From Nitrospirota bacterium (GTDB taxonomy: Bacteria > Nitrospirota > UBA9217), in assembly GCA_963749655.1 (NCBI GenBank), contig CAVVOB010000027.1, forward strand, positions 9,542 to 73,541: a stretch of DNA of 64,000 nucleotides. Reading direction: 5' to 3'. Both the position numbers and the translations under genes were made by a program. This document shows positions 2,624-41,789 of the stretch, in pieces. Positions within the stretch are counted from its first letter, which is position 1, and each line of letters begins with the position of its first letter. The notes beneath the pieces were generated by a model. The model was not told the DNA's origin and ran no database searches. It worked only from the letters and a program-made list of their open reading frames with translations.

Positions 2624-4408
2624 TCACTCGTCTTTGTTCATTGCAAAATCTTCCGGGAAAAGTCTTGTCATCTCCTTTCTCAACAAATATTCGCCAGCCT
2701 TAGCCGAATCCTTGCTCAGAACCTCATTCAACAAGGCCTTGCAATAACTATGTTCGAGTCCCCGTATGATCTTTTTTATCTTCGGAATGGCGTAGGCGTT
2801 CATGCTCAATTCATCGAGTTCCAAACCCAGTAATATAGGTACATAGAGCGGCTCACCAGCCATTTCTCCGCATAAGGCGACTTCAATTTTGTGTGCATGG
2901 GCAGCTTGAACCGTCTGTTTGATCATTCTCAGCACAGCGGGGTGGAGCGGCTCGTAAAGGTACGACACGTATTCATTTCCTCTGTCGATAGCGAGGGTAT
3001 ACTGGATGAGGTCATTCGTCCCGATGCTGAAGAAATCTACCTCCGGCGCGAGTATGTCGCTTATCATGCACGTGGAAGGTACTTCTATCATGATACCGAT
3101 TTTTATGTTCCGGTTGAAGTCAACTCCATCATCGGCCAGTTCCTCCATACATTCCCGTATTATCGTCTTTGTCTTTTTTACCTCGTCTATGCCGGAGATC
3201 ATCGGGATCAATATTTTTAGAGGCCCGAAAGCGCTCGCCCGCAGTATGCCCATGAGCTGGGACCTGAAAATATCCGTTTCCTTGATACAAAGTCTGATGG
3301 CCCTCAAGCCCATGGCCGGGTTCATCTCCTTCGGTATTCCCGCATCGGACACGAACTTGTCTCCGCCTATATCGAGTGTTCGTATCGTGACATATTCCAA
3401 CTCCTCGCTCTCAGCAAGCTTCTTGTAGATGTGGTAGTGGTCCATCTCCGTGGGTAACACCTTTTTCGACAGGTAAATATACTCCGTCCTGTAGAGTCCA
3501 ACCCCCTGAGCGCCATACTTTTCGATAATGTCCATTTCTGCGAGAAGCTCTATGTTTGCGCCGACTTTAACCTTGTACCCATCCTTGGTTTCAGATTTCA
3601 GTTTTGCGATCTTTAGGAACTCTCTCTTCTGGTTCTTCAGATGGAGATGCTTTGCAATGTAGTCTTTCTGAATCTCTTTTGTCGGGTTGATTATGACAAC
3701 GCCCTGGTCGCCGTCGATGATGATGGTGTCGTTGTTCTTGACGAGACTCGTGAGGTTGCCGACCCCGACAACAGCCGGAATTTCCAGAGCCCTGGCAACG
3801 ATCGAAGTATGTGACGTTCGTCCGCCCACGTCGGTGACGAACCCCGATATCTTGGTGAGGTTCAATTGAATGGTGTCCGCGGGGGACAGATCGTGGGCAA
3901 CAATGATTGATTTTCCTTTTATGCCGGCGCTGTCCAGGCCCGACGTCTTTCCTTTTACCAGTATCCGGGCAAGTCTGTCGTATATATACTTTATGTCCTG
4001 GCCGCGCTCCCTCAAATAGGGGTCTTCCACCTTTTCGAAACCTGCGAGGAATTTTGACACGACAATATCGAGGGCCCATTCGGCGTTTATTCTTCTGTCC
4101 CTGATCGCTTCGATCACGCCGTTTGCAAAAAAATCGTCCTGGAGAATCAGCACGTGTGCGTCTATGATGAACGTGTGCTTCCTTATTTCATCGTCAGGTA
4201 TGGTTTGCTTGACATTGTTTAATTCTTCTATGGCATCTTTCAGGGCATGCCGAAACCGAACGACCTCCCTTTCTATATGATCTTCTCTGACAGAGCGCCT
4301 GGTGATAGGTATCTTACCTCTTTCGAGTAAGTGCACCTTACCAAAGGTGACGCCCGACGAAGCGCCTACGCCTCTCAAAATCTTGTTTGCAAGCACATCT
4401 TCTTTCAT
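2624..4408 (-). CDS. ptsI: PEP-protein phosphotransferase (PTS enzyme I)
   Basis: GGRTSHTSI phospho-His, GLYRTE, EMNPAMGLRAIR, DFFSIGTNDLIQY, CGEMAG. Confidence 0.97.
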   Translation of the reverse strand: MKEDVLANKILRGVGASSGVTFGKVHLLERGKIPITRRSVREDHIEREVVRFRHALKDAIEELNNVKQTIPDDEIRKHTFIIDAHVLILQDDFFANGVIEAIRDRRINAEWALDIVVSKFLAGFEKVEDPYLRERGQDIKYIYDRLARILVKGKTSGLDSAGIKGKSIIVAHDLSPADTIQLNLTKISGFVTDVGGRTSHTSIVARALEIPAVVGVGNLTSLVKNNDTIIIDGDQGVVIINPTKEIQKDYIAKHLHLKNQKREFLKIAKLKSETKDGYKVKVGANIELLAEMDIIEKYGAQGVGLYRTEYIYLSKKVLPTEMDHYHIYKKLAESEELEYVTIRTLDIGGDKFVSDAGIPKEMNPAMGLRAIRLCIKETDIFRSQLMGILRASAFGPLKILIPMISGIDEVKKTKTIIRECMEELADDGVDFNRNIKIGIMIEVPSTCMISDILAPEVDFFSIGTNDLIQYTLAIDRGNEYVSYLYEPLHPAVLRMIKQTVQAAHAHKIEVALCGEMAGEPLYVPILLGLELDELSMNAYAIPKIKKIIRGLEHSYCKALLNEVLSKDSAKAGEYLLRKEMTRLFPEDFAMNKDE

Positions 4409-15900: not shown

Positions 15901-16613
15901 GACTTCCTCCGAAGCAGATGCCGTTCGAGATAGCTCAGGAACTCCATGGAAAAGGAGTCGCACCGGATGGCGATGTCCCGGATCTTGTCGGCGAAATAGT
16001 TGTAGGCGATCACGGCGGGGATCGCCACGAACAGGCCGGAGATGGTGTTGATGAGCGCCGCCGCGAGGCCCGGCGCCAGGGCGCCGATGTCCCCCGCGCC
16101 CTTGAGCCCGATCCCGTAGAAAGCCTCCATGATGCCCCAGACCGTTCCGAACAGCCCGAGGAGCGGACCCACGGTGCCCGTCGTGCCGAGAAAGGCGAGG
16201 TAGCGCTCCATGTACACGACCTCGTCCTGCGTCGTGATCTTGAGCGACCGTTCGATCTCCTGGGAGATGAGCGGCCGCTCCTCATCGGTGACCTTTCCCT
16301 CGGGAAGGGTCTTGATGATGCTCTCGGCGCCGCGGTAGCCGTCGACGAAGAGCGTCGCCAGGGGGCTGAACTTCCTGGATTCGGCGTACTTCAGCAGTTC
16401 CTCGACGTTCTTGGTCTTTCGGAAGGCCTGCAGGAAGGAGTGCGATTCCTTCTCTGCCCTCCTCAGGAACTGGTACTTGAGAAGGATCATGGCCCAGGAC
16501 ACGATGGAAAACCCCATGAGGATGAACACGATCACCCGGGCGACCCATCCTGTTTCTGCAAACAGGCCAAGCACTCCCGTGTTCAGCCCGGGCACTGCAC
16601 TGATAGCGAGCAT
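15897..16613 (-). CDS. tolQ: TolQ/ExbB/MotA proton-channel protein
   Basis: GPLLGLFGTVWGIM, APGLAAALINT..GLFVAIPAVIAYN. Confidence 0.92.
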   Translation of the reverse strand: MLAISAVPGLNTGVLGLFAETGWVARVIVFILMGFSIVSWAMILLKYQFLRRAEKESHSFLQAFRKTKNVEELLKYAESRKFSPLATLFVDGYRGAESIIKTLPEGKVTDEERPLISQEIERSLKITTQDEVVYMERYLAFLGTTGTVGPLLGLFGTVWGIMEAFYGIGLKGAGDIGALAPGLAAALINTISGLFVAIPAVIAYNYFADKIRDIAIRCDSFSMEFLSYLERHLLRRKS

Positions 16614-16983: not shown

Positions 16984-18916
16984 CTAAAGCGTCGCCATGA
17001 CCTTTCCCATCTCACTCACGTCGTATCCGCCCATGGCAACGATCTGGTCCCGGAATTCCCGGTCCTCGCGGATGATGCTGAAGAGCGCCTGCATCATGGG
17101 AGTCTCGAAGAACTCTTGCGGCACGGCAAGATCGTACCGCTCCTGCGCAACGGGAACAAAATCGAGCTCCAGCGCCTGGGCCGCCGAGAGCACGGCGAGG
17201 CCCGTGTCCGCGGCTCCCGACACGACCGCTGCGGCCACTGCCATGTGGGTGAATTCTTCGTGATCATACCCTTTTACGGTTTTCGGGTCAATCTTCAATT
17301 TCTTGAGATAGAGGTCCGTCAATAAACGCGTTCCCGCGCCTGCCTGGCGGTTCACGAACACCACATCCGGCCTCGCCAGGTCTTCGAATCCCTTGATGCC
17401 TTTGGGATTGCCCTTGGGAACGATGAAGCCCTGAGTCCGGTACACGAGGTTCACGAGGACGGTCCTGCGGGCGGCGAGATGTTTTCTGATATAGCTTACG
17501 TTGTACTCGCCCGTCTCCTCGTCGAGCAGATGGGTGCCGGCCATGTGCGCTTCCCCGCGCTTCAGCGCCAGAAGGCCCCCCATGCTGCCCACGTGGGCCG
17601 AGGACATGGAGTATTCGGGGATGTTTTTTCTTGAGATAGTTTGCGAGCACGTCCAGGGCGTTGTCGTGGGAGCCGATGCAGACGATGGTGTTCTCGATTT
17701 CGCGGCCGGACCGCAGCAGTTCCACGGTCACTTCCTGGCCCGCGGCGATGCCCTCGCTCTGCGCCGGGACGCGGATGATGCCGTCGGCCCGCACGAGCGA
17801 CATGAGCGCCCCGGCGCCGCGCGTGACCGGCGTGGCGATGAGATTGCCCGACACACTGCCGAGCTTCACGCGGATGAACTCCTCCGAACCGAGGCCCGAG
17901 GCGACCTGGCGGCTGAGCCGCGCCGGGATCGTTTCGGGGCCGGCGGACCTGATCCCCAAAAGCGAAAAGACAAGGGGCTTGACGAAGAGGTTGAACGTGA
18001 GGGCCGCCGACACGGGGTATCCGGGGATGCCGATCACGGGCTTGCCCTCCACGATCGCGAGGATCACGGGCTTGCCGGGCTTGATTGCGACACCGTGCAC
18101 GATGACCTGTCCGATCCCGGCGATCACGTCGGACGTGAAGTCCTCCCTGCCTGCCGAGGAGCCTGCGTTGATCACCACGCAGTCCGAGTCCACGAGCGCC
18201 TCGAGGATTGTCCTTCGCAGCAAAGCTGCGTCGTCCTTGACGATGGACTTGCGGACGCCGTGGGCGCCGTATTCCACAGCCATGGCGCAGAGCATGGTGG
18301 AGTTGAAATCGATGATGTCGCCCTTCCGGAGGACGCTGCCCGGCTCGATCAGCTCCGTTCCCGTGGGGATGACGGACACCACGGGCCTCTGCCGGACCTT
18401 GACCTCGGAATGACCGCTGGCGATCATGGCGGCCATGTCCACGGGACGGATGACGTGGTTCTCGGAGATGATGAGCTCCGTGGCCACGATGTCCTCGCCC
18501 ACAAGCCGTACGTGCTGCCACGGCGTCGCCGGCTTCAGGATCTCGATCTCGGACTCCGAGATTTTTTCCACGTCCTCGATCATGATCACGGCGTCGAAGC
18601 CGTCGGGCATGGGATCGCCGGTGTCGACTGCTACCGCCTGTGAGGGAGATGCAAGGCGCTTCGGCCGTGTCTCTGCCGCGCCGAAGGTCTCGATGAACCT
18701 GACGGCATAGCCGTCCATGGCCGCTGAGTGATAGAAGGGGGACGAGATCTTCGCGATCACCGCCTCTGACGTGACCCGTCCGAGGGCGTCGCCGACGGGA
18801 ATGCGCTCTCCCCCAAGGGGCCCGCCGATGCCTGCTGCTTTCAGGGCGTCGCTGTATTTCGCGATTGCATCGGCAAGAGGAAGGTTGTCGAGATATTTTT
18901 TCTGTTTGAATGCCAT
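16984..18916 (-). CDS. moeA: Molybdopterin molybdotransferase MoeA fused to a C-terminal PBP domain; one frameshift at ~17617-17620
   Basis: SAAMDGYAV, VDTGDPMP, HGVAIKPGKP, GIPGYPVS, then GSHD; removing one G from GGGG at 17617-17620 gives KKKHPEYSMSSAHVGSMGGL continuing into ORF 16984-17607. Confidence 0.92.
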
Positions 18917-19203: not shown

Positions 19204-19590
19204 CTATGCTTTGAGACTGATAAGTTTATTTACTTCCGCGATTACCTGTTCAATCTCCGGACGAACGGCACTGATAACAGACGTTCCCGCGTGCTTATGC
19301 TCCGGGTGAGTTTTTACTTCGGGATGATGAGGTGTATTATCGTAGCGGAAGATAATGCTTGTATCGGACTGTTGGTAATGATAGCGATAGCTCAACCAGG
19401 TTAATGTTCCTGCATTGATATGCAGGGCCTCGCTTATTTCAAGCAAGGAATTATCGAAAAATCGAAGACGAATACGCAAATTCCCCCGCTCGTTGGACAA
19501 CACCTGCTCTTCGTACCGTTCTACTTCCAACCTGGATGAGCCCGAAATGAGTCTCTGTACTCTTTCGAAATGATCCAGGATCTTGTTCAT
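19204..19590 (-). CDS. DUF6516 / TumE-like toxin
   Basis: YRYHYQ...IFRYDNTPHHPEVKTHPEHKH pattern; AT-richer than flanks; overlaps the upstream small gene by 4 nt. Confidence 0.8.
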   Translation of the reverse strand: MNKILDHFERVQRLISGSSRLEVERYEEQVLSNERGNLRIRLRFFDNSLLEISEALHINAGTLTWLSYRYHYQQSDTSIIFRYDNTPHHPEVKTHPEHKHAGTSVISAVRPEIEQVIAEVNKLISLKA

Positions 19591-19952: not shown

Positions 19953-21233
19953 CTAGAACAAGCGCACTTCCACTTCCTCCCCCGACTCGATCCCGATCTT
20001 GTTCACCGGCACCACCACCGTTCCCACGGCTTTTACGAGCGTGCTGATGAGACCCGATGCGCCGAACACGGGCCGCGCCCACAAGCCGTCGTCCCTCTTT
20101 TCGAGCATCACGCGGACGTGGTCCTCCCTGCCCGGACTCGACGCGATGCTGCGCGCGAGCTTCGCCTTCACGGAACGATAGGGCGGCGTGCCTTCGAGCG
20201 CGGGGTCCGGCCTCTCCCCGGTCAAGCGCAGGAGCGCGGGCTTGACGAAGATCTCGAAGCAGATATTGACGGCAACGGGATGGCCGGGGAGGCCGAAGAC
20301 CGGCACCTGTCCGCGTCCGGCGCCGACAATGCCGATGATCAGGGGCTTGCCCGGCCTGATCGAAACGCCGTGCACCATGACCCCCGGCGCGCCGGCGTCG
20401 TTGATCACCTTTGCCGTCAAGTCCGCCGTGCCCACGGAGCTGCCGCCGGTCATGAGGACGAGCGAACAGTCCGCGACCGAGGAATCGAGCGCCTCGCGGA
20501 GGCGGTCGTACTCGTCGCGGATGATGCCTTTCTTGACGGGCATGCCGCCGGACTGCGCGATCAGACCTTCCAGATTATAGGAATTGGTATCGCGGATCCT
20601 GCCCGGACCGGGGTTGCTGTCGGCGGGTACGATCTCGTTCCCTGTTGAAATAATGGCGACCCTTGGCCGCTCGAAAACCGGGATGCGGGTGATCCCCATA
20701 CCTGCCAGGGCGGCCATGTCCTGGGGCCGCATGCGGTGGCCGCGGGAAAGAACGGGCTCCCCTATGCGGATATCGTCGCCGCGTTGGATCACATTTTCAA
20801 GAGGCGCGACGGCCTTCACCGCCTCGATGGTCGCTGCATCGACTGCCTGGGTCTGCTCGAACATCACCACCGCGTCGGCGCCGGAGGGAAGCGCTCCGCC
20901 CGTGGCGATCTTCATGACTTCGCCTTTGCCTATGCCGCGACCGGGCATGGCCCCCATGGGGATATCTCCCACGACTGCGAGGAGCGCGGGCCGGGACTCG
21001 GCTGCGCCGAAAGTGTCGGCGCTCCGCACGGCATAGCCGTCCATGGTGGAGCGGTCGAAATCGGGCAGATCAACGGGTGAGATTATGTCGGAGGCGAGAA
21101 TACGGCCGAGGGAGGAGCTGATGGAAAGCTCCTCGGAAGGAATGGCGGGCACGGTGAAGTGCTCGTCAAGGACCTTGAGCGCTTCCTCTCGGGACACGAC
21201 GCCGCGCCTGCCGAGCATGTCTTTGAGGGCCAT
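19953..21233 (-). CDS. moeA: Molybdopterin molybdotransferase MoeA (gephyrin-like)
   Basis: PDFDRSTMDGYAV, IATGGALP.GADAVVM.E, ISTGNEI, TGGSSVG, IRPGKP, GLPGHP. Confidence 0.95.
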   Translation of the reverse strand: MALKDMLGRRGVVSREEALKVLDEHFTVPAIPSEELSISSSLGRILASDIISPVDLPDFDRSTMDGYAVRSADTFGAAESRPALLAVVGDIPMGAMPGRGIGKGEVMKIATGGALPSGADAVVMFEQTQAVDAATIEAVKAVAPLENVIQRGDDIRIGEPVLSRGHRMRPQDMAALAGMGITRIPVFERPRVAIISTGNEIVPADSNPGPGRIRDTNSYNLEGLIAQSGGMPVKKGIIRDEYDRLREALDSSVADCSLVLMTGGSSVGTADLTAKVINDAGAPGVMVHGVSIRPGKPLIIGIVGAGRGQVPVFGLPGHPVAVNICFEIFVKPALLRLTGERPDPALEGTPPYRSVKAKLARSIASSPGREDHVRVMLEKRDDGLWARPVFGASGLISTLVKAVGTVVVPVNKIGIESGEEVEVRLF

Positions 21234-21367
21234 GAACTCTCCCGAAAAAAATTTACCGCGAAGGCGCAAAGGAAATCAGACTTCTTAAGTAAAATCTATT
21301 CGCGTTCCTTGCGCCCTGGCGGTTCGATTTTGAGATCAAGATCCGGAAACGCCAGCTGCGGCCCGTA

Positions 21368-24448: not shown

Positions 24449-25636
24449 CTACAGGCTGATGTTTTCCACCATGCTCCTGAAATACCGGCAGTTCGCCATG
24501 AGGTCCGGTCCGTGGGTGAACAGCCCGCCGCCGATCAGGAAGATCAGGTCCCGTCCGTAAGTTTCGATCATCTCCGGCACCCGTTCAATGCTCATGCCTC
24601 CTCCCGGCGCGGGGAAGATGGATTTGAGCGTCCCCATCGGTTCGGAGGCTGCGTCCGCAATCTCCCTGCATTCCCTGCGGCTGAAGGAGAATCGCCCCCC
24701 GAAGTTCGGGAAGATGGTAGCGTCCGCGCCGCCGAGCCGGGCAAGCTGTCCGAAGACGACTCCGTGGGACATGCCGCTGTTGCCCGTGACAAAACTCCCC
24801 TGCAGGGCCGGATGGGTAAGGATCGGAAGCGCGAGCCCGTCGTCCTCAGCCAGTTCCCGCATGCAGTCGTATCCCACCAGACCCGGCGCGACCATGAGCC
24901 CTCCGGCCCCCGCTTCCTTCGCAATCCTGGCCCGCTTCAAGACCTCGTTATTCGGCGCGGTCACGTTGGCTATATATATAGGAGGACTCCCTGATTCCCT
25001 GCCCGCCCGTTGTACCGCATCAGCGCAGCGTTTGACCCGCTCCGCAAAAGGCGAACAGCGCTGGTCCGTCAGGCCGTGGTCGTCCTTGATCATGTCCATG
25101 CCGCCCAGGGCGAACCGGTACGCGAGGTCGGCAAGTTCGGTGCAGGAAAGGCCCATGGGTTTTATCGCGGTCGAGAGGAGCGGCCGCTTCGGAACGTTCA
25201 ATAATTTCCTGAGCCCGTCCCTGCCGAAGCGGGAGCCTTTAAAATTCCTGAGCAGCGTTTCAGGCAGATCGAGGTGCTCTACGCGGATGCCGGGCTTGAT
25301 GCTGCTGTTTCCGAATATGACGTTCAGGAGCTGCGTGAGCTCGCCTGCGGCTATCTCGACGGCATAGCTGACGATCGCCCGGAAGCTGTCATTGTCAAAC
25401 CGTTCGAACAGTTCTATCCGTCCGAACACATGGTCCCGGATCACGCCTTCGGGAACTTCGTGAGCCGGAAATTCCACGGTCTGTTCGATGCAGATGTCCT
25501 CGGCTTTGGCGCGCGCTTCGCTCTCATTGCCGAAGATGCGGTAGAAGACGGAGAAGCGGCCTGAAGAAAAAAGAGAGGAGGGGGTAGAGGTTTTGTGAAG
25601 GATCATGGCGCTCCGTCTCTGTTGACGATTATTCAC
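24449..25636 (-). CDS. RuBisCO-like protein (form IV, KDDH type resembling Rhodospirillum rubrum RLP / DeepYkr clade)
   Basis: EQTVE, LLNVIFGNSS, RFG..GLR, AIKPMGLS, GGMDMIKDDHGL, THPA, RLGGAD..IFPNFGGRF, PAPGGGM, LIGGGL. Confidence 0.93.
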   Translation of the reverse strand: MNNRQQRRSAMILHKTSTPSSLFSSGRFSVFYRIFGNESEARAKAEDICIEQTVEFPAHEVPEGVIRDHVFGRIELFERFDNDSFRAIVSYAVEIAAGELTQLLNVIFGNSSIKPGIRVEHLDLPETLLRNFKGSRFGRDGLRKLLNVPKRPLLSTAIKPMGLSCTELADLAYRFALGGMDMIKDDHGLTDQRCSPFAERVKRCADAVQRAGRESGSPPIYIANVTAPNNEVLKRARIAKEAGAGGLMVAPGLVGYDCMRELAEDDGLALPILTHPALQGSFVTGNSGMSHGVVFGQLARLGGADATIFPNFGGRFSFSRRECREIADAASEPMGTLKSIFPAPGGGMSIERVPEMIETYGRDLIFLIGGGLFTHGPDLMANCRYFRSMVENISL

Positions 25637-26087
25637 CGTTGCCGCTGTCCTTTTTAGTTTTTCCTTCGAGCTGTTTATATTTCCGGAACGCCACGGAAAG
25701 CGTCGACGACTCGGATATGGCCCCTGCCACGAGGAGAGCGTCCATGATCTCTTCGAGCGACGCGCCGTGGTCCATGGCCCGCGCCATGTGCGCTTCGAGG
25801 CAGTGGTCGCACCGAAGTGCCGCGGCAGCGCCGATGGCCACCAGCTCCGCCGTCTTCCTGTCCAGCGTGGACGGCTCCTTATAGATCGCCATGCCCTTCA
25901 GGATGAAGGGGTTGAAATTCCGCGGCCGGTCCTTCAGCACGTTCAAGAGAAACCCCAGCTCCCCTTTCTTGTTCCGGTGCAGGTCCGCGAGCTCTTCCGT
26001 GAGCTCGTCCCTGCAAAGCAGCGCCCGGGTCTCTTTCACGAGGTTTGAATTCTTAACTTTTTTCGAAGGACTCTTAGCTTTTTTCAT
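25629..26087 (-). CDS. Carboxymuconolactone decarboxylase / AhpD-like protein
   Basis: LDRKTAELVAIGAAAALRCDHCLEAH...A...GAS.EEI; CxxC intact; overlaps the RLP start. Confidence 0.88.
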   Translation of the reverse strand: MKKAKSPSKKVKNSNLVKETRALLCRDELTEELADLHRNKKGELGFLLNVLKDRPRNFNPFILKGMAIYKEPSTLDRKTAELVAIGAAAALRCDHCLEAHMARAMDHGASLEEIMDALLVAGAISESSTLSVAFRKYKQLEGKTKKDSGNGE

Positions 26088-26181
26088 TTAAATTTGCCAA
26101 TCCGCGTTTCGCAATTATCTTCCCTGGCTACCGGCCCCTTGCCCCAGGCCCCCATCTTTTCCATTCCGCATTCTCATTGCT

Positions 26182-28179
26182 TTACAGGGCTTCCGCTTTC
26201 GCCTCGCTGTGAACGGCGCTGATGTGTGCCTTTGCAAGCTCTTCTTCGGATATGTTGAATTTTTCCTTTGTCAGGTTTTCCGTTTCTTTGATCAGCGCCA
26301 TGGCGTCCATGTCGTATTTCTTCAACAGATAATTTTTGCTCGCGCCGTGGGCATAGGTGTCTCTGAGGCCCATACGCACCAGTTTTTTCGAAATGCCCGC
26401 CTCAGCCATCTGTTCGGCGACGATCGATCCCAGGCCGCCGATGATGGTGTGGTTTTCCATGGTGATCACGCCGTGGCGGGATTTCGCGATCGCCTCAAGC
26501 ACGGATTCGTCATTGAAAGGCTTCAACGTCGAGATGTGCAGATGCTGGATCGACAGCCCCCGTTGTTTCAGGACCTGCACCGCCCGCAGCGCCTCTTCGG
26601 TCATAATGCCCGAGGTCAGGAGCGCGATGTCGCCTCCCGTCGAAAGCGTCCGCGCCCTATTGAACTGCATGGGCTCCTCTTTCGGGAACAGCCTCGGGAT
26701 CTCGCCCCTGAGCATCCGCACGTAGACCGGGCCTTTGATCTTTTCGACCACCGCGAGGACCGACTCCACCTCGGTGGCATCGCCGCATTCAAGGACCGTC
26801 ATGTTCGGCAGCGCCCGCATCAGCGCCACGTCTTCGATGGCCTGGTGAGTGGCCCCGCCGGGCGTGGTGATGCCGGGCAGGAACCCGATCATCCTGACCG
26901 GCAGATTGGGATAGGATACGGACATGGCGATCTGGTCAAAGGCGCGGCGATAGATGAAGACCGCGAAAGTATGAACAAAGGGGATGAAACCCTCGCGCGC
27001 GAGGCCTGCCGCGAAGCTCAGCATGTTCTGCTCGGCAATGCCCATGGACAGGAACCGGTCGGGATAAGTCGACCGGAAAAGGTCGATCTCCGTCGAGCTG
27101 GTGAGGTCGGCCGAAAGCACGAGCACCTCCGGCTTGTCCGCGGCCCAGGCAACGAGGTTCTTCGCATGCACCCGCGTGACGATCTCGGGGCCAAGCGGCT
27201 TCTCCCCTTTTCCTTCTCCCCTTGAGGGAGAGGGCGGAGTGAGGGGTGCTTCAGAACCCGTCATCTCAGCCAGAGCAGCCAGATACTGTCCCTTTTCCTC
27301 GGCCGACGAAAAGCGGACATAATGCATCTTGGGGGCCCGGGACTTCAGGACCTCGATCCCCATCGCAGCATCGGTATCGCACAGGACGACGACGGGCCTG
27401 CCGTCCGGCGCCAGCGCCCCCGTGTCGGCAAGGCGCTTGATGTCGTGGCCGTTCACCCGGAACACGCGGCAGCCGAAGGCCTCGAGCCTCTTGTCAAGCG
27501 GCTCGATGTCCATGACCGAGCACATCTTTCCGTCGCACTGGAACCCGTTCACGTCCACGTAGATGACGACGTTGTCGAGCATATGGAAGGACATGGCCTG
27601 AAGCGCTTCCCAGGTCTGGCCGATCTGGAACTCGCCGTCGGACATGAAAAGGAAAACCCTGCCCTTCTCGCCCTTCCGTTTCCGCGCCATGGCAATGCCC
27701 GCGGCCTGGCTGATGCCCTGGCCGAGAGAGCCCGTCATGGTCTCCATGCCCGGCGAGTGCTCCGCGCCGATCATCTCGACGGAGCTGCCGTCCTTGTTGA
27801 ACTGCAGGAGCCCCTCCTCGGCCATGCGGCCCGTTTCGATCAGGGTCGCATAGAGCACGAGCGCATACTGGGCCGGTGAAAGAAAGAAGCGGTCGCGGTC
27901 CGGGCCGGGCCCGTTGAAGTCCGCTCCCGTGAAATAATGAGGATTGCCGGGTCCGGGAACTCCCGGAAACGGCCTGGGGACCAACGGAACTTCGATCGTT
28001 CCGAGGTTCATGACCTTGACGTAAAGCGTCGCCAGGATCTCCGCCGAGGAGCAGGCCTGGGAGAGGTATCCTCCGTTGTTCCTGATCGTGTGTTCGAGCA
28101 CGCGGCGCCGGATACTTGCTGCAACGCGCTTCACCTCGCTCTGCCATGCCGCACCAATGTCTTTCTTCTCTGCCTTCAT
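26182..28179 (-). CDS. Transketolase-like ThDP enzyme, N- and C-terminal subunits fused, atypical active site
   Basis: TGSLGQG, SDGE...WEA...DN....DVNGFQCDG ThDP motif, SADLTSST, GIAEQNM, GATHQAIED, TMENHTIIGGLG. Confidence 0.9.
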   Translation of the reverse strand: MKAEKKDIGAAWQSEVKRVAASIRRRVLEHTIRNNGGYLSQACSSAEILATLYVKVMNLGTIEVPLVPRPFPGVPGPGNPHYFTGADFNGPGPDRDRFFLSPAQYALVLYATLIETGRMAEEGLLQFNKDGSSVEMIGAEHSPGMETMTGSLGQGISQAAGIAMARKRKGEKGRVFLFMSDGEFQIGQTWEALQAMSFHMLDNVVIYVDVNGFQCDGKMCSVMDIEPLDKRLEAFGCRVFRVNGHDIKRLADTGALAPDGRPVVVLCDTDAAMGIEVLKSRAPKMHYVRFSSAEEKGQYLAALAEMTGSEAPLTPPSPSRGEGKGEKPLGPEIVTRVHAKNLVAWAADKPEVLVLSADLTSSTEIDLFRSTYPDRFLSMGIAEQNMLSFAAGLAREGFIPFVHTFAVFIYRRAFDQIAMSVSYPNLPVRMIGFLPGITTPGGATHQAIEDVALMRALPNMTVLECGDATEVESVLAVVEKIKGPVYVRMLRGEIPRLFPKEEPMQFNRARTLSTGGDIALLTSGIMTEEALRAVQVLKQRGLSIQHLHISTLKPFNDESVLEAIAKSRHGVITMENHTIIGGLGSIVAEQMAEAGISKKLVRMGLRDTYAHGASKNYLLKKYDMDAMALIKETENLTKEKFNISEEELAKAHISAVHSEAKAEAL

Positions 28180-28584
28180 ACCCTTCTTACGCTCTCCAAT
28201 TCCGCATTGTTGCTAAAATACCGCCTGTTTCACAAAACAAAACCCCGACAAGCTTGCAGGCTCACAGGCCGGCAGGCCGGGCTTTGCAACGTCTGACGGC
28301 GTTGATTATCACGCAAGGATGAACCGGTGTCAAGGCGAAAGAGTCCCCGAACCGGACCAGGGAGCCACCGGTTCCGCGGACGATGCGGAACACACAGTGG
28401 GGACACAGAAAAAGTCTCGCAACATTTCATGAAGTATACCCTCCTCCTTGGTTTACTATCTGCGTTTATCCGTGTTCACCTGTGGTTCCCTTCTCTTAAA
28501 ATCCTGCCCGACCGGCCAGGTGGCTGCACTCCGGCCCGCACTACGGGGTCCGGATGCGTACTTGCTATTTTTCATATTATTACA

Positions 28585-38417: not shown

Positions 38418-38662
38418 GTAGAGTAGAGAGCTGGCCACACGACCAGCCCTCCCTCATCAAACCGTGCATGCGGTTTTCCCGCACACGGCTTTCCGATGTT
38501 CTTCACCGCGAGGCATGCGCCTGAGTCCAACCCGCTGTCGTCGGCACTTTGTAGAGCCCGTACTTTTCGTACAGTGACCTGCTGCTGAACCGAGTAAACG
38601 CTGTTGCCCTGTTTTTGATCTTATGCCGCCTTCGCAGATGGGTTTGGAGTCGCCCTTCTATA
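38418..38662 (-). mobile_element. 5'-truncated group II intron (IIC-like): IEP C-terminus plus domains V and VI
   Basis: Minus strand GGAAAGCCGTGTGCGGGAAAACCGCATGCACGGTTTGATGAGGG (DV), then ...CTCTACTCTAC (DVI/3' end); preceded by IEGRLQTHLRRRHKIK...LYEKYGLYKVPTTAGWTQAHASR*. Confidence 0.92.
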
Positions 38663-40581: not shown

Positions 40582-41789
40582 GAAGACCGTCGAACGCAAA
40601 GAACTGGAACCCCGCCACCCTCGCCATCCACGGCCTGGGGCGGCTGCCCAAGGCGCACCATGCCGGTCTCGACGCCGATCATGCACACCTCCAACTACTA
40701 TTTCGACACTGCCGACGAGGTCGAGGATTTCATGCGCGCCAAGGGCCAGGGCAAGGTGATCCGCGAGCACGAGTACGCCCGCTACGGCAACCCGACCCAG
40801 CAGGAGACGGAGCGCAAGCTCGCCGCGATCGAAGGGGCCGAGCAAGCCGTGCTCTACTCCTCGGGCATGGCAGCGGTGCTGCTCGACGATCATGACCTTC
40901 ATGAAGCCCAAGGCGGCCACATCATCTTCACCGGCGACTGCTACCGCCAGACGCGCGACTTCGCCACGAACTTCCTCGGGAAGTTCGGCATGGAGCATTC
41001 CATCGTGGACCCCACGGCCGAGGCCATCGAGAAGGCGATCAAGCCGAACACGAACATCATCTTCACCGAGTCGCCCACGAACCCCTATCTGCGCGTGCTC
41101 GACATCCCGGCGATCGTGAAGGTGGCCAAGGCCAAGCAAGATCCTGACCATCATCGACGCCACGCTGGCCACGCCGTACAACATCAAGCCCATCGAGACT
41201 GGGCGTGGACATCGTGCTCCACTCGGCCACCAAGTACCAGGGCGGCCACAACGACCTCATGGCAGGCGTGGCCCTCGGCTCCGCGGCCCTCATGACCGAC
41301 TGCTACAAGATGCAGCGCATGATGGGCGCGACCCCGGGCCCGCTCACCTGCTTCCTGCTGGAGCGGGGACTCAAGACCTTCGGCATGCGCATGGAGCACC
41401 ACAACAAGGCCGGACTCGCCATTGCCCAGATGCTGGAGGCCCATCCCAAGATCGAGAAGGTCTGGTACCCGGCGCTCAAGTCGCACCCGGACCACAAGCT
41501 CGCCATGGAGCAGATGAAAGGCTTCGGCAGCGTCATCAGCTTCCTGGTCAAGGGCGGCAACAAGGAGACGCGGAAGTTCATCGACGCGCTTGAACTTTTC
41601 CTGATCACGCCGAGCCTCGGCGGCAGCGAGAGCCTGGTCACGCAGATGTGGGCCATGTCGTTCTTCGACTATCCCGAGCAGTTCCGCAAGGACATCGGCA
41701 TGGTGGACAACCTGGTCCGGCTCGCCCTGGGTCTCGAGGACATCGACGACCTGATCGCCGACCTGAAGCAGGCCCTGGACCAGATCTGA
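40574..41789 (+). CDS. metB: Cystathionine gamma-synthase family PLP enzyme (several frameshifts)
   Basis: YARYGNPT, YSSGMAA, ESPTNP, HSATKYQGGHND, SLGGSESL, VRLALGLED split across frames. Confidence 0.85.

Follow-up and report, generated by a model that had tools for sequence, protein, structure and literature searches.

5'-Methylthioadenosine (MTA), like 5'-deoxyadenosine, arises in every cell that uses S-adenosylmethionine (SAM), and both need to be removed. Two oxygen-independent routes for this are known, the MTA-isoprenoid shunt, which depends on a cupin, and the dihydroxyacetone phosphate (DHAP) shunt, which depends on an aldolase; many anaerobes have neither. Here we analyse a stretch of 64,000 nucleotides from a Nitrospirota bacterium (GenBank assembly GCA_963749655.1, contig CAVVOB010000027.1, positions 9,542 to 73,541; referred to as the window), in which the gene for a transketolase-like (TK-like) enzyme lies close to that for a RuBisCO-like protein (RLP); as a conserved pair, the two would fill the salvage gap in anaerobes that have neither route. 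In the MTA-isoprenoid shunt, RLP1 of Rhodopseudomonas palustris and the RLP of Rhodospirillum rubrum convert 5-methylthioribulose-1-phosphate to 1-methylthioxylulose-5-phosphate and the ribulose epimer in a ratio of 3:1, and a cupin then strips the methylthio group using glutathione, as given in the available part of the source (PMC5893883).

In the window, the TK-like gene, a gene for an AhpD/CMD-family protein and the RLP gene are co-oriented on the minus strand, as the original prediction had claimed; open reading frames (ORFs), their translations and Pfam domains agree on this, and equivalog scores were taken from NCBIfam models. The three genes are:

26182-28179, minus strand: fused TK-like thiamine diphosphate (ThDP) enzyme of a variant family, 665 residues (Pfam, NCBIfam, alignment)
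25629-26087, minus strand: AhpD/CMD-family protein, 152 residues, with the motif CDHCLEAH, between TK and RLP (Pfam, TIGR00778)
24449-25606, minus strand: KDDH RuBisCO-like protein, 385 residues, likely starting at ATG 25606 (Pfam, homologue lengths)

Taken with their relatives, these genes make it a well-supported prediction that SAM by-products are salvaged by a further, new branch and that the transketolase superfamily includes a functional class that is new as well. The TK-like protein and the RLP very probably act in one pathway linked to MTA and 5-methylthioribose (MTR) and, on balance, would form a cupin-independent, oxygen-independent branch of MTA/MTR salvage.

The RLP contains the motifs IKDDHG and FPNFGGRF that had been read in it, and a RuBisCO catalytic domain (RuBisCO_large, PF00016, 104 bits) in which K-D-D-H replaces K-D-D-E. 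Its closest solved RLP structure is 3qfw (E 8.8e-72, 245 bits), which has IKDDHG in common with it and which we take to be the RLP1-type protein of R. palustris. The next matches in the PDB are 4nas (171 bits), 2oek (the Geobacillus enolase, 155 bits), 1ykw (the Chlorobium RLP, 143 bits), 2qyg (132 bits) and 3nwr (84 bits), the RLPs ranked behind 3qfw at 132-171 bits being of the enolase and Photo types. Models of the MtnW enolase score under their cut-offs (NF007095, 218 bits versus 409; TIGR03332, 168 versus 514), and a homologue with 77% identity bears the JGI name S-methyl-5-thioribulose 1-phosphate isomerase.

The TK-like protein belongs to the transketolase-like ThDP superfamily, with all three domains over their Pfam cut-offs (Transketolase_N 67, Transket_pyr 111 and Transketolase_C 68 bits), the activating Glu and the ThDP/Mg motif SDG...DVNG. 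It does not reach the threshold score of any TK model in NCBIfam (NF004559, the best, 376 bits versus 488; TIGR00232, 114 versus 682), and none of the three window proteins is assigned to a named equivalog by NCBIfam. A weak DXP_synthase_N match (31 bits) is present in Pfam and the DXP synthase (DXS; DXP, 1-deoxyxylulose-5-phosphate) model TIGR00204 reaches 185 bits versus a cut-off of 466, which does not place the protein among the DXP synthases; it has no XFP or POX-type Pfam match.

The predicted TK motifs GGYLSQAC, SPAQY, VEMIG, PKMHY and GATHQ are likewise all present. In a MAFFT alignment of the window protein with two family members, E. coli K-12 TktA and nine canonical TKs, H26, H66, H100, I189, H461 and D469 of TktA are replaced by Y38, Q104, I137, C215, L434 and G441, so that five residues of canonical TK (H26, H66, H100, H461 and D469) are missing, and an insert of about 35 residues precedes the SPxQY motif. 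L116, H261 (H286, in PKMHY), H473 (H445, in GATHQ), E411 (E383) and the phosphate ligands R358, S385 and R520 are kept. Aligned to human TK with HMMER, the window protein shows an identical mapping of the His residues, and the earlier assignment by eye of three positions to H26, H66 and H100 was thus correct. Residue counts were made over 68-69 family members drawn from 80 fetched loci:

Y38: 68 of 68 members
Position 104: 50 of 68 members have Q, the other 18 have H
I137: 68 of 68 members
H141, a new His, in EMIGAEHSPG: 68 of 68 members
C215: 65 of 68 members
H286: 68 of 68 members
E383 (E411 of E. coli): 69 of 69 members
L434: 67 of 69 members
G441: 68 of 69 members
H445: 69 of 69 members

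The loss of three His residues that had been proposed for the window protein therefore extends to the whole family at H26 and H100, but not at H66, which is retained as His in 18 members; I189C, H461L, D469G and the new His141 are conserved active-site changes beyond those described before. The motifs GGYLSQAC, SP[ASVT][QH]Y, EMIGAEHSPG, GFLPG and PGGATHQ form a signature that, at the sequence level, defines a TK-like family. According to the available text of bioRxiv 10.1101/719906, the residues of E. coli TK within 5 Å of the donor C1-C2 are His26, His66, His100, Leu116, Ile189, His261, Ser385, Asp469 and His473, and H100L/F/Y mutations were required to accept pyruvate, a non-hydroxylated donor; five of these nine positions are altered in the TK-like family.

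The association of this variant TK with the RLP is conserved, as the original prediction required. Among 41 genomes of the same phylum, Nitrospirota, the variant TK occurs in 20 (58-100% identity), all of which have the RLP; a 21st match, in genome G013, is a paralogue of 37% identity, and just one RLP-positive relative lacks the variant TK, its assembly being 74% complete. Of the 20 relatives, 12 have the two genes side by side, three have them 3.8-8 kb apart on one contig and five have them on different contigs. A wider scan with two signature peptides taken from a six-sequence alignment, using one genome per species, gave at least 585 confirmed loci, and the cross-phylum results cover the best 80 of these. 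They fall in Nitrospirota (20), Bacillota (17), Chloroflexota (12) and Spirochaetota (10), with fewer each in Planctomycetota, Myxococcota, Acidobacteriota, Synergistota, Verrucomicrobiota, Pseudomonadota, Methylomirabilota, Omnitrophota and other phyla, and include a Promethearchaeota (Asgard) archaeon, making at least 15 named phyla overall. In 19 loci a single ORF encodes the TK, and in 48 it is divided over two, TKn and TKc. Nine loci end too soon to judge; in 61 of the 71 informative ones the RLP gene lies downstream on the same strand, within 300 nt in 55 (one cut by a contig end), at 300-1000 nt in three and 3.8-7.9 kb away in three. It was not in the available flank of the other ten, and of five genomes checked from this group, four carry the RLP elsewhere. 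Since the same pairing recurs across phyla, the arrangement is not due to chance. Clustering of 1031 neighbouring ORFs gave no universally conserved neighbour besides the pair; the TK-RLP module travels alone. In one relative whose genome is 100% complete (G019:C15:1032376-1035524; loci L027 and L037), the variant TK contains six TGA and two TAG codons and the RLP is likewise interrupted by stop codons; a search of the genome for MtnA found none, and an Rru_A2000-like cupin lies elsewhere (C1:648597-648923). This module looks decayed.

The two genes are also found fused. Three cluster representatives consist of an RLP C-terminus, a linker and a TK N-terminus, and a search with one fusion representative returned full-length RLP-TK fusions of 1115-1185 residues in the diatoms Cyclotella cryptica, C. 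atomus and Thalassiosira profunda, one of 1363 residues in Skeletonema marinoi and one of 1019 residues in an MMETSP transcript. KDDH is present in all 14 fusions checked and every other signature motif in 13 or 14, GGYLSQAC being missing from fusion P0420 and the C-terminal motifs from fusion P0408. RLPs joined to a Cupin_2 domain also came up in this search; the domain matches PDB entry 3jzv ('uncharacterized protein Rru_A2000', E 1.9e-17), presumably the R. rubrum methylsulfurylase. In a quick maximum-likelihood tree of 72 RLP domains, for which two of the 50 RLPs from the loci were dropped for length, all RLPs that are linked or fused to a TK or fused to a cupin group together, apart from three outgroups (SH-aLRT 97), and three cupin-fused and 12 diatom TK-fused RLPs form a clade (SH-aLRT 100) nested among the TK-linked ones. 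Because closely related RLPs have either a cupin or a TK as covalent partner, it can be argued that both partners take the RLP product.

Two further RuBisCO homologues of the relatives may be described here. A long branch at the base of the RLP clade is formed by an RLP (G040:C43; L129:5867-7291) 41% identical to that of the window, followed by genes of 503 and 728 residues, in a genome with neither the variant TK nor the cupin. Another homologue, 30% identical to the window RLP (G033:C17:2841-5118; L130, L148), adjoins a class II aldolase/MtnB-family gene, and this pair may represent another salvage variant.

The genomic context of the pair, where informative, points to MTR salvage. By clustering, MtnA-like genes occur in eight loci and MtnK-like genes in five, which was verified for Clostridium ljungdahlii and the Asgard locus. 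In C. ljungdahlii, the gene order is a ribose-type binding protein, ATPase and permease (an ABC transporter), MtnK (TIGR01767, 433 bits versus 275), MtnA (TIGR00512, 427 versus 279), TKn, TKc and RLP; some 270 nt 5' of the first gene there is a SAM-I riboswitch (88.8 bits). In the Asgard locus (L104), MtnK and MtnA precede the pair (469 and 450 bits versus cut-offs of 275 and 279). No riboswitch was found with Rfam in ten other Bacillota loci. A cysteine synthase gene stands directly 5' of the TK in four spirochaete loci. Over 115 same-strand adjacent ORFs, the Pfam tally was IF-2B 4, STAS 3, CMD 3, APH 3 and PALP 2, and a cupin was not among the 25 families listed of the 142 found. In a few related Nitrospirota, a GAPDH gene 3' of the RLP and an acetyl-CoA synthetase gene upstream are suggestive only. 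The C. ljungdahlii region (L077) has two more SAM-I riboswitches, at 3129-3237 on the minus strand and 16411-16521 on the plus strand, one facing a divergent gene and the other about 1.1 kb 5' of an ABC-transporter ATPase gene (17619-18386), and looks like a methionine-regulon island.

The genome of the window (G000) contains MtnA and MtnP, and no member of the class II aldolase/MtnB family was found in it. Using the cupin domain of the RLP-cupin fusion that matches 3jzv as query, an Rru_A2000-type cupin was found neither in this genome, in keeping with the earlier claim that there is no cupin here, nor in 19 of the 20 relatives with TK and RLP, the sole match being in G019; the cupin methylsulfurylase by which the MTA-isoprenoid shunt would be recognised, adjoining the RLP or elsewhere in the genome, is thus not apparent. 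Since the genome has a separate, ordinary split TK with GSGH, SKGH and QGHP, the variant TK is an extra paralogue rather than the housekeeping enzyme; the genome also encodes a DXS of its own. The N-terminal subunit gene of the canonical split TK (G000:C30:230650-231247) shifts frame after GSLGQG, through either a frameshift or an assembly error. Strong Rru_A2000-type cupin matches (45-52% identity) occur in four relatives without a KDDH-type RLP (G026, G027, G035 and G036; L137-L140); in G026 and G035 the only RuBisCO homologues are 31-32% identical.

These genes allow a further reading, in which the module mainly disposes of 5-deoxyribose: the RLP would convert 5-deoxyribulose-1-phosphate to DXP, and the TK-like enzyme would either carry out the reverse of a DXS half-reaction, giving glyceraldehyde-3-phosphate (G3P) and a hydroxyethyl/acetaldehyde unit, or leave the product to feed isoprenoid synthesis. 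Enzymes of the MtnK/MtnA type are promiscuous for 5-deoxy sugars, and the weak DXP_synthase_N similarity would fit. The change of H100 to Ile also mirrors the engineered H100L, which accepts a methyl-ended donor (bioRxiv 10.1101/719906, available text). We nevertheless consider 5-deoxyribose an improbable main purpose, as sulfur salvage is what the SAM riboswitch, the equivalog scores of MtnK and MtnA and the neighbouring cysteine synthase genes indicate, and the DXS model scores far under its cut-off in a genome that has its own DXS.

In the proposed sulfur salvage, MtnP or MtnK, and then MtnA, would produce 5-methylthioribulose-1-phosphate, which the KDDH (DeepYkr-type) RLP would isomerise to 1-methylthio-D-xylulose-5-phosphate (MTXu-5P), both steps being established for homologues. 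Ribulose-configured ketoses are not donors of TK, which uses xylulose (D-threo) geometry with a 5-phosphate; as the RLP product has just this configuration and phosphate, it suits the donor role, and the TK-like enzyme would take MTXu-5P as a donor-type substrate. The distal phosphate site and the residues acting on C2/C3 would be kept for this, with the donor C1/C2 pocket rebuilt (H26Y, H66Q/H, H100I, I189C, D469G) near C1, where the substrate would bear S-methyl (or H) and not OH. C2-C3 cleavage would then free G3P, and we lean towards such a cleavage of the RLP product into G3P and a C2 unit.

Phosphoketolase and Xsc (sulfoacetaldehyde acetyltransferase) are ThDP enzymes in which a beta leaving group, water or sulfite, is eliminated to give acetyl-ThDP. 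By the same logic, the ThDP-bound 2-methylthio-1-hydroxyethylidene could lose methanethiolate by beta-elimination, the acetyl-ThDP then leaving as acetate or acetyl-phosphate and the methanethiol becoming available for methionine resynthesis; this analogy makes elimination to methanethiol and an acetyl unit a tentative proposal. Equally tentative is the full reading to which it leads, that the TK-like protein represents a new ThDP class, a 'methylthio-ketolase' breaking both the C-C and the C-S bond of MTXu-5P to give G3P, free methanethiol and, as an energy-rich acetyl unit, either acetyl-phosphate or acetate, and making up a compact mobile module with the RLP. The same pair would probably handle the 5-deoxy analogue derived from 5'-deoxyadenosine, via 1-deoxyxylulose-5-phosphate.

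All of the linkage and context evidence would fit equally well if the TK-like enzyme were a simple lyase that releases 2-(methylthio)acetaldehyde, an intermediate of the DHAP-ethylene/methanethiol shunt, for processing by other enzymes. This aldehyde is an established salvage intermediate in the available part of PMC5893883. A simple lyase still seems unlikely to us: no alcohol dehydrogenase or nitrogenase-like reductase recurs beside the pair, and a thioether beta to the ThDP enamine would be expected to eliminate readily, judging by the chemistry of phosphoketolase and Xsc.

The third gene of the window encodes a clear member of the AhpD/CMD family (PF02627, 60 bits versus 23; TIGR00778, 42.5 versus 27.8), whose CxxC (CDHCLEAH) is kept in all ten orthologues. 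The gene stands between TK and RLP, or directly after TK, in eight of the 20 Nitrospirota relatives with TK and RLP, and in three of the 80 cross-phylum loci, all of them Nitrospirota. This distribution bears on a further possibility, that in the Nitrospirota with this gene the CxxC protein replaces the cupin/glutathione step: one Cys would attack the sulfur of MTXu-5P to give DXP and a mixed disulfide, the second would free methanethiol, and the TK would act on DXP. The position of the gene, the conserved CxxC and the lack of a detected cupin in these genomes would agree with such a step, as would the thiol dependence of the cupin reaction (PMC5893883, available part). We hold it to be quite improbable, given that the gene is missing from 12 of the 20 relatives and from all 60 non-Nitrospirota loci. 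For the same reason the CMD protein cannot be essential to the module; it is, by its distribution, a lineage-specific accessory and not a general pathway component, dispensable for the core reaction and perhaps involved in thiol-disulfide handling. The original prediction of a cupin-independent salvage route is thus supported by comparative genomics in its core, the TK and the RLP, and is not supported, in the form given, where it made the CxxC protein the thiol/redox partner in the pathway. In three relatives (G024, G003 and G014; L031-L033), 3.8-8 kb of other genes part TK-CMD from RLP; in G003 and G014 (L032, L033) they include a DNA methylase-like gene of 741-764 residues, which suggests that foreign DNA was inserted into the operon.

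A number of points weigh against the proposed MTA/MTR salvage. What the two enzymes act on, what they release and even in which order they work is inferred; the RLP is a putative DeepYkr member by its PDB scores, its motif and the JGI name, as the RLP tree, which has flagged long branches, holds no characterised reference RLP. D469G and H461L are unexplained by the MTXu-5P model, as this substrate has the same C4 hydroxyl and phosphate as xylulose-5-phosphate. MtnA is present in 36 of the 41 relatives irrespective of TK and RLP and was not found in four genomes with both (G006, G008, G016 and G019), and the class II aldolase, found in six of the 20 genomes with TK and RLP versus 11 of the 21 others, gives a weak contrast. 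The window's genome (86.6% complete, 5.8% contamination) yielded no MetY equivalog, and its only Cys/Met pyridoxal phosphate (PLP) gene is split over two frames. The acetyl-CoA synthetase and GAPDH neighbours are limited to a few closely related Nitrospirota, and about 60 of the 71 informative loci show the pair with no mtn gene nearby. The last point would be expected if the TK-like protein were a true transferase between sugar phosphates, unrelated to SAM by-products, and the TK-linked RLPs catalysed another reaction than the R. rubrum enzyme. RLPs are functionally diverse, and the window RLP has a weak match to the OiaX model. That match reaches 75 bits versus a cut-off of 700, however; no informative context recurs apart from mtnK, mtnA and the SAM riboswitch, and cupin-fused RLPs sit in the same clade, so that we regard an unrelated transferase as very unlikely. 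The split Cys/Met PLP gene lies in the window at about 40657-41777 on the plus strand (ORFs 40660-41295 and 41205-41789; frameshift or assembly error) and is a weak match to the O-acetylhomoserine sulfhydrylase model, at 125 and 92 bits versus a cut-off of 495.

Two shorter features of the window accompany the three genes:

25611-25614, minus strand: GGAG, Shine-Dalgarno-like, 4 nt 5' of the RLP ATG at 25606 (read from the sequence)
28305-28333, minus strand: promoter-like TTGACA and GATAAT with a 17-nt spacer, 11 of 12 matches (consensus scan only)

The longest RLP ORF (24449-25636) begins at GTG 25636 and overlaps the CMD ORF, as had been noted. Homologues of the RLP have 383-385 residues, and their alignment with the window protein begins at about residue 10. 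Given these lengths and the GGAG preceding ATG 25606, the RLP likely starts at this ATG and spans 24449-25606, which leaves a gap of 22 nt after the CMD stop; the overlap probably is not real.

The promoter-like site lies about 125 nt 5' of the TK start. The block of this site, ccTTGACT...ccttgcgTGATAATCaacgcc, recurs 5' of the TK in related Nitrospirota, by eye in about 13 of 21 aligned upstream regions, and the 5' leader between this block and the TK varies among them; as the leader is not conserved, a leader RNA is unlikely at the Nitrospirota TK. With Rfam, no riboswitch was found in the window or in four other loci, and the sole match was a group II catalytic intron domain (RF00029, 57.7 bits versus a cut-off of 40) at 38418-38493 on the minus strand, in a stretch of low GC (36-38 kb, GC 0.44). 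The flanking genes encode two MoeA paralogues, a TumE-family toxin, a pyridine-nucleotide disulfide oxidoreductase, a multihaem cytochrome, a YhcH-family protein, an adenylate cyclase and a HerA-like ATPase; as these are unrelated, the unit comprises three genes. The toxin gene is a 128-residue ORF at 19204-19590 on the minus strand (TumE, PF20126, 81.5 bits), flanked by the MoeA paralogues at 17288-18916 and 19953-21269.

Full-text literature searches, outside whose coverage lie the original papers of 2007-2017 with their supplements, so that an earlier mention is possible, gave no transketolase partner for an RLP or for MTXu-5P. The available parts of PMC6302742, PMC10663253, PMC13474568 and PMC6389311 make no link between a transketolase and RLPs or MTXu-5P, and the word 'transketolase' is absent from that of PMC5893883; a review on methionine salvage from 2018 and one from 2026 dealing with MTXu-5P are among these papers. 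If the prediction is true, hundreds of genes labelled 'transketolase' or 'RuBisCO large subunit-like' would acquire a function, the transketolase superfamily would gain a reaction type new to it, and a biological origin of methanethiol would be added for sediments, groundwater and diatom-rich waters. The users of the module would be anaerobes from at least 15 phyla, an Asgard archaeon and, with the module as a single fusion protein, diatoms. C. ljungdahlii, with the genes in a SAM-riboswitch-controlled operon, is a cultivable and genetically tractable carrier.

Among known enzymes, canonical TK (EC 2.2.1.1; E. coli TktA, human TKT and the split Carboxydothermus TK) shares with the window protein the families of its three-domain fold, the ThDP/Mg motif, E411, H261, H473 and R358/S385/R520; the window protein differs from it in H26Y, H66Q/H, H100I, I189C, H461L, D469G and the insert of about 35 residues. 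DXS belongs to the same TK-like superfamily, handles a C1-deoxy xylulose-5-phosphate and is echoed in the weak DXP_synthase_N match, whereas the window protein lies well below the TIGR00204 cut-off and the genuine DXS is encoded elsewhere in the genome. In contrast to phosphoketolase and Xsc, with which the TK-like protein has no sequence family in common, the leaving group would here be methanethiolate.

With the MTA-isoprenoid shunt of R. rubrum and R. palustris, the present system shares MtnP and MtnA, a KDDH RLP scoring closest to 3qfw, and RLPs of the same clade fused to an Rru_A2000-type cupin. It differs in that the cupin was not found in the window's genome and the conserved partner is a ThDP enzyme; the expected products would be G3P and a C2 fragment and not DXP, and no glutathione-type thiol is implied. 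With the DHAP shunt (MtnK/MtnP, MtnA and Ald2), it would have in common its independence of oxygen, its start at 5-methylthioribulose-1-phosphate, the formation of a triose phosphate and a C2 methylthio fragment, and a dual function with 5-deoxy sugars. In place of the class II aldolase, which was not found in the window's genome, isomerisation would here be followed by the proposed ThDP-dependent C2-C3 cleavage, and the triose phosphate released would be G3P instead of DHAP.

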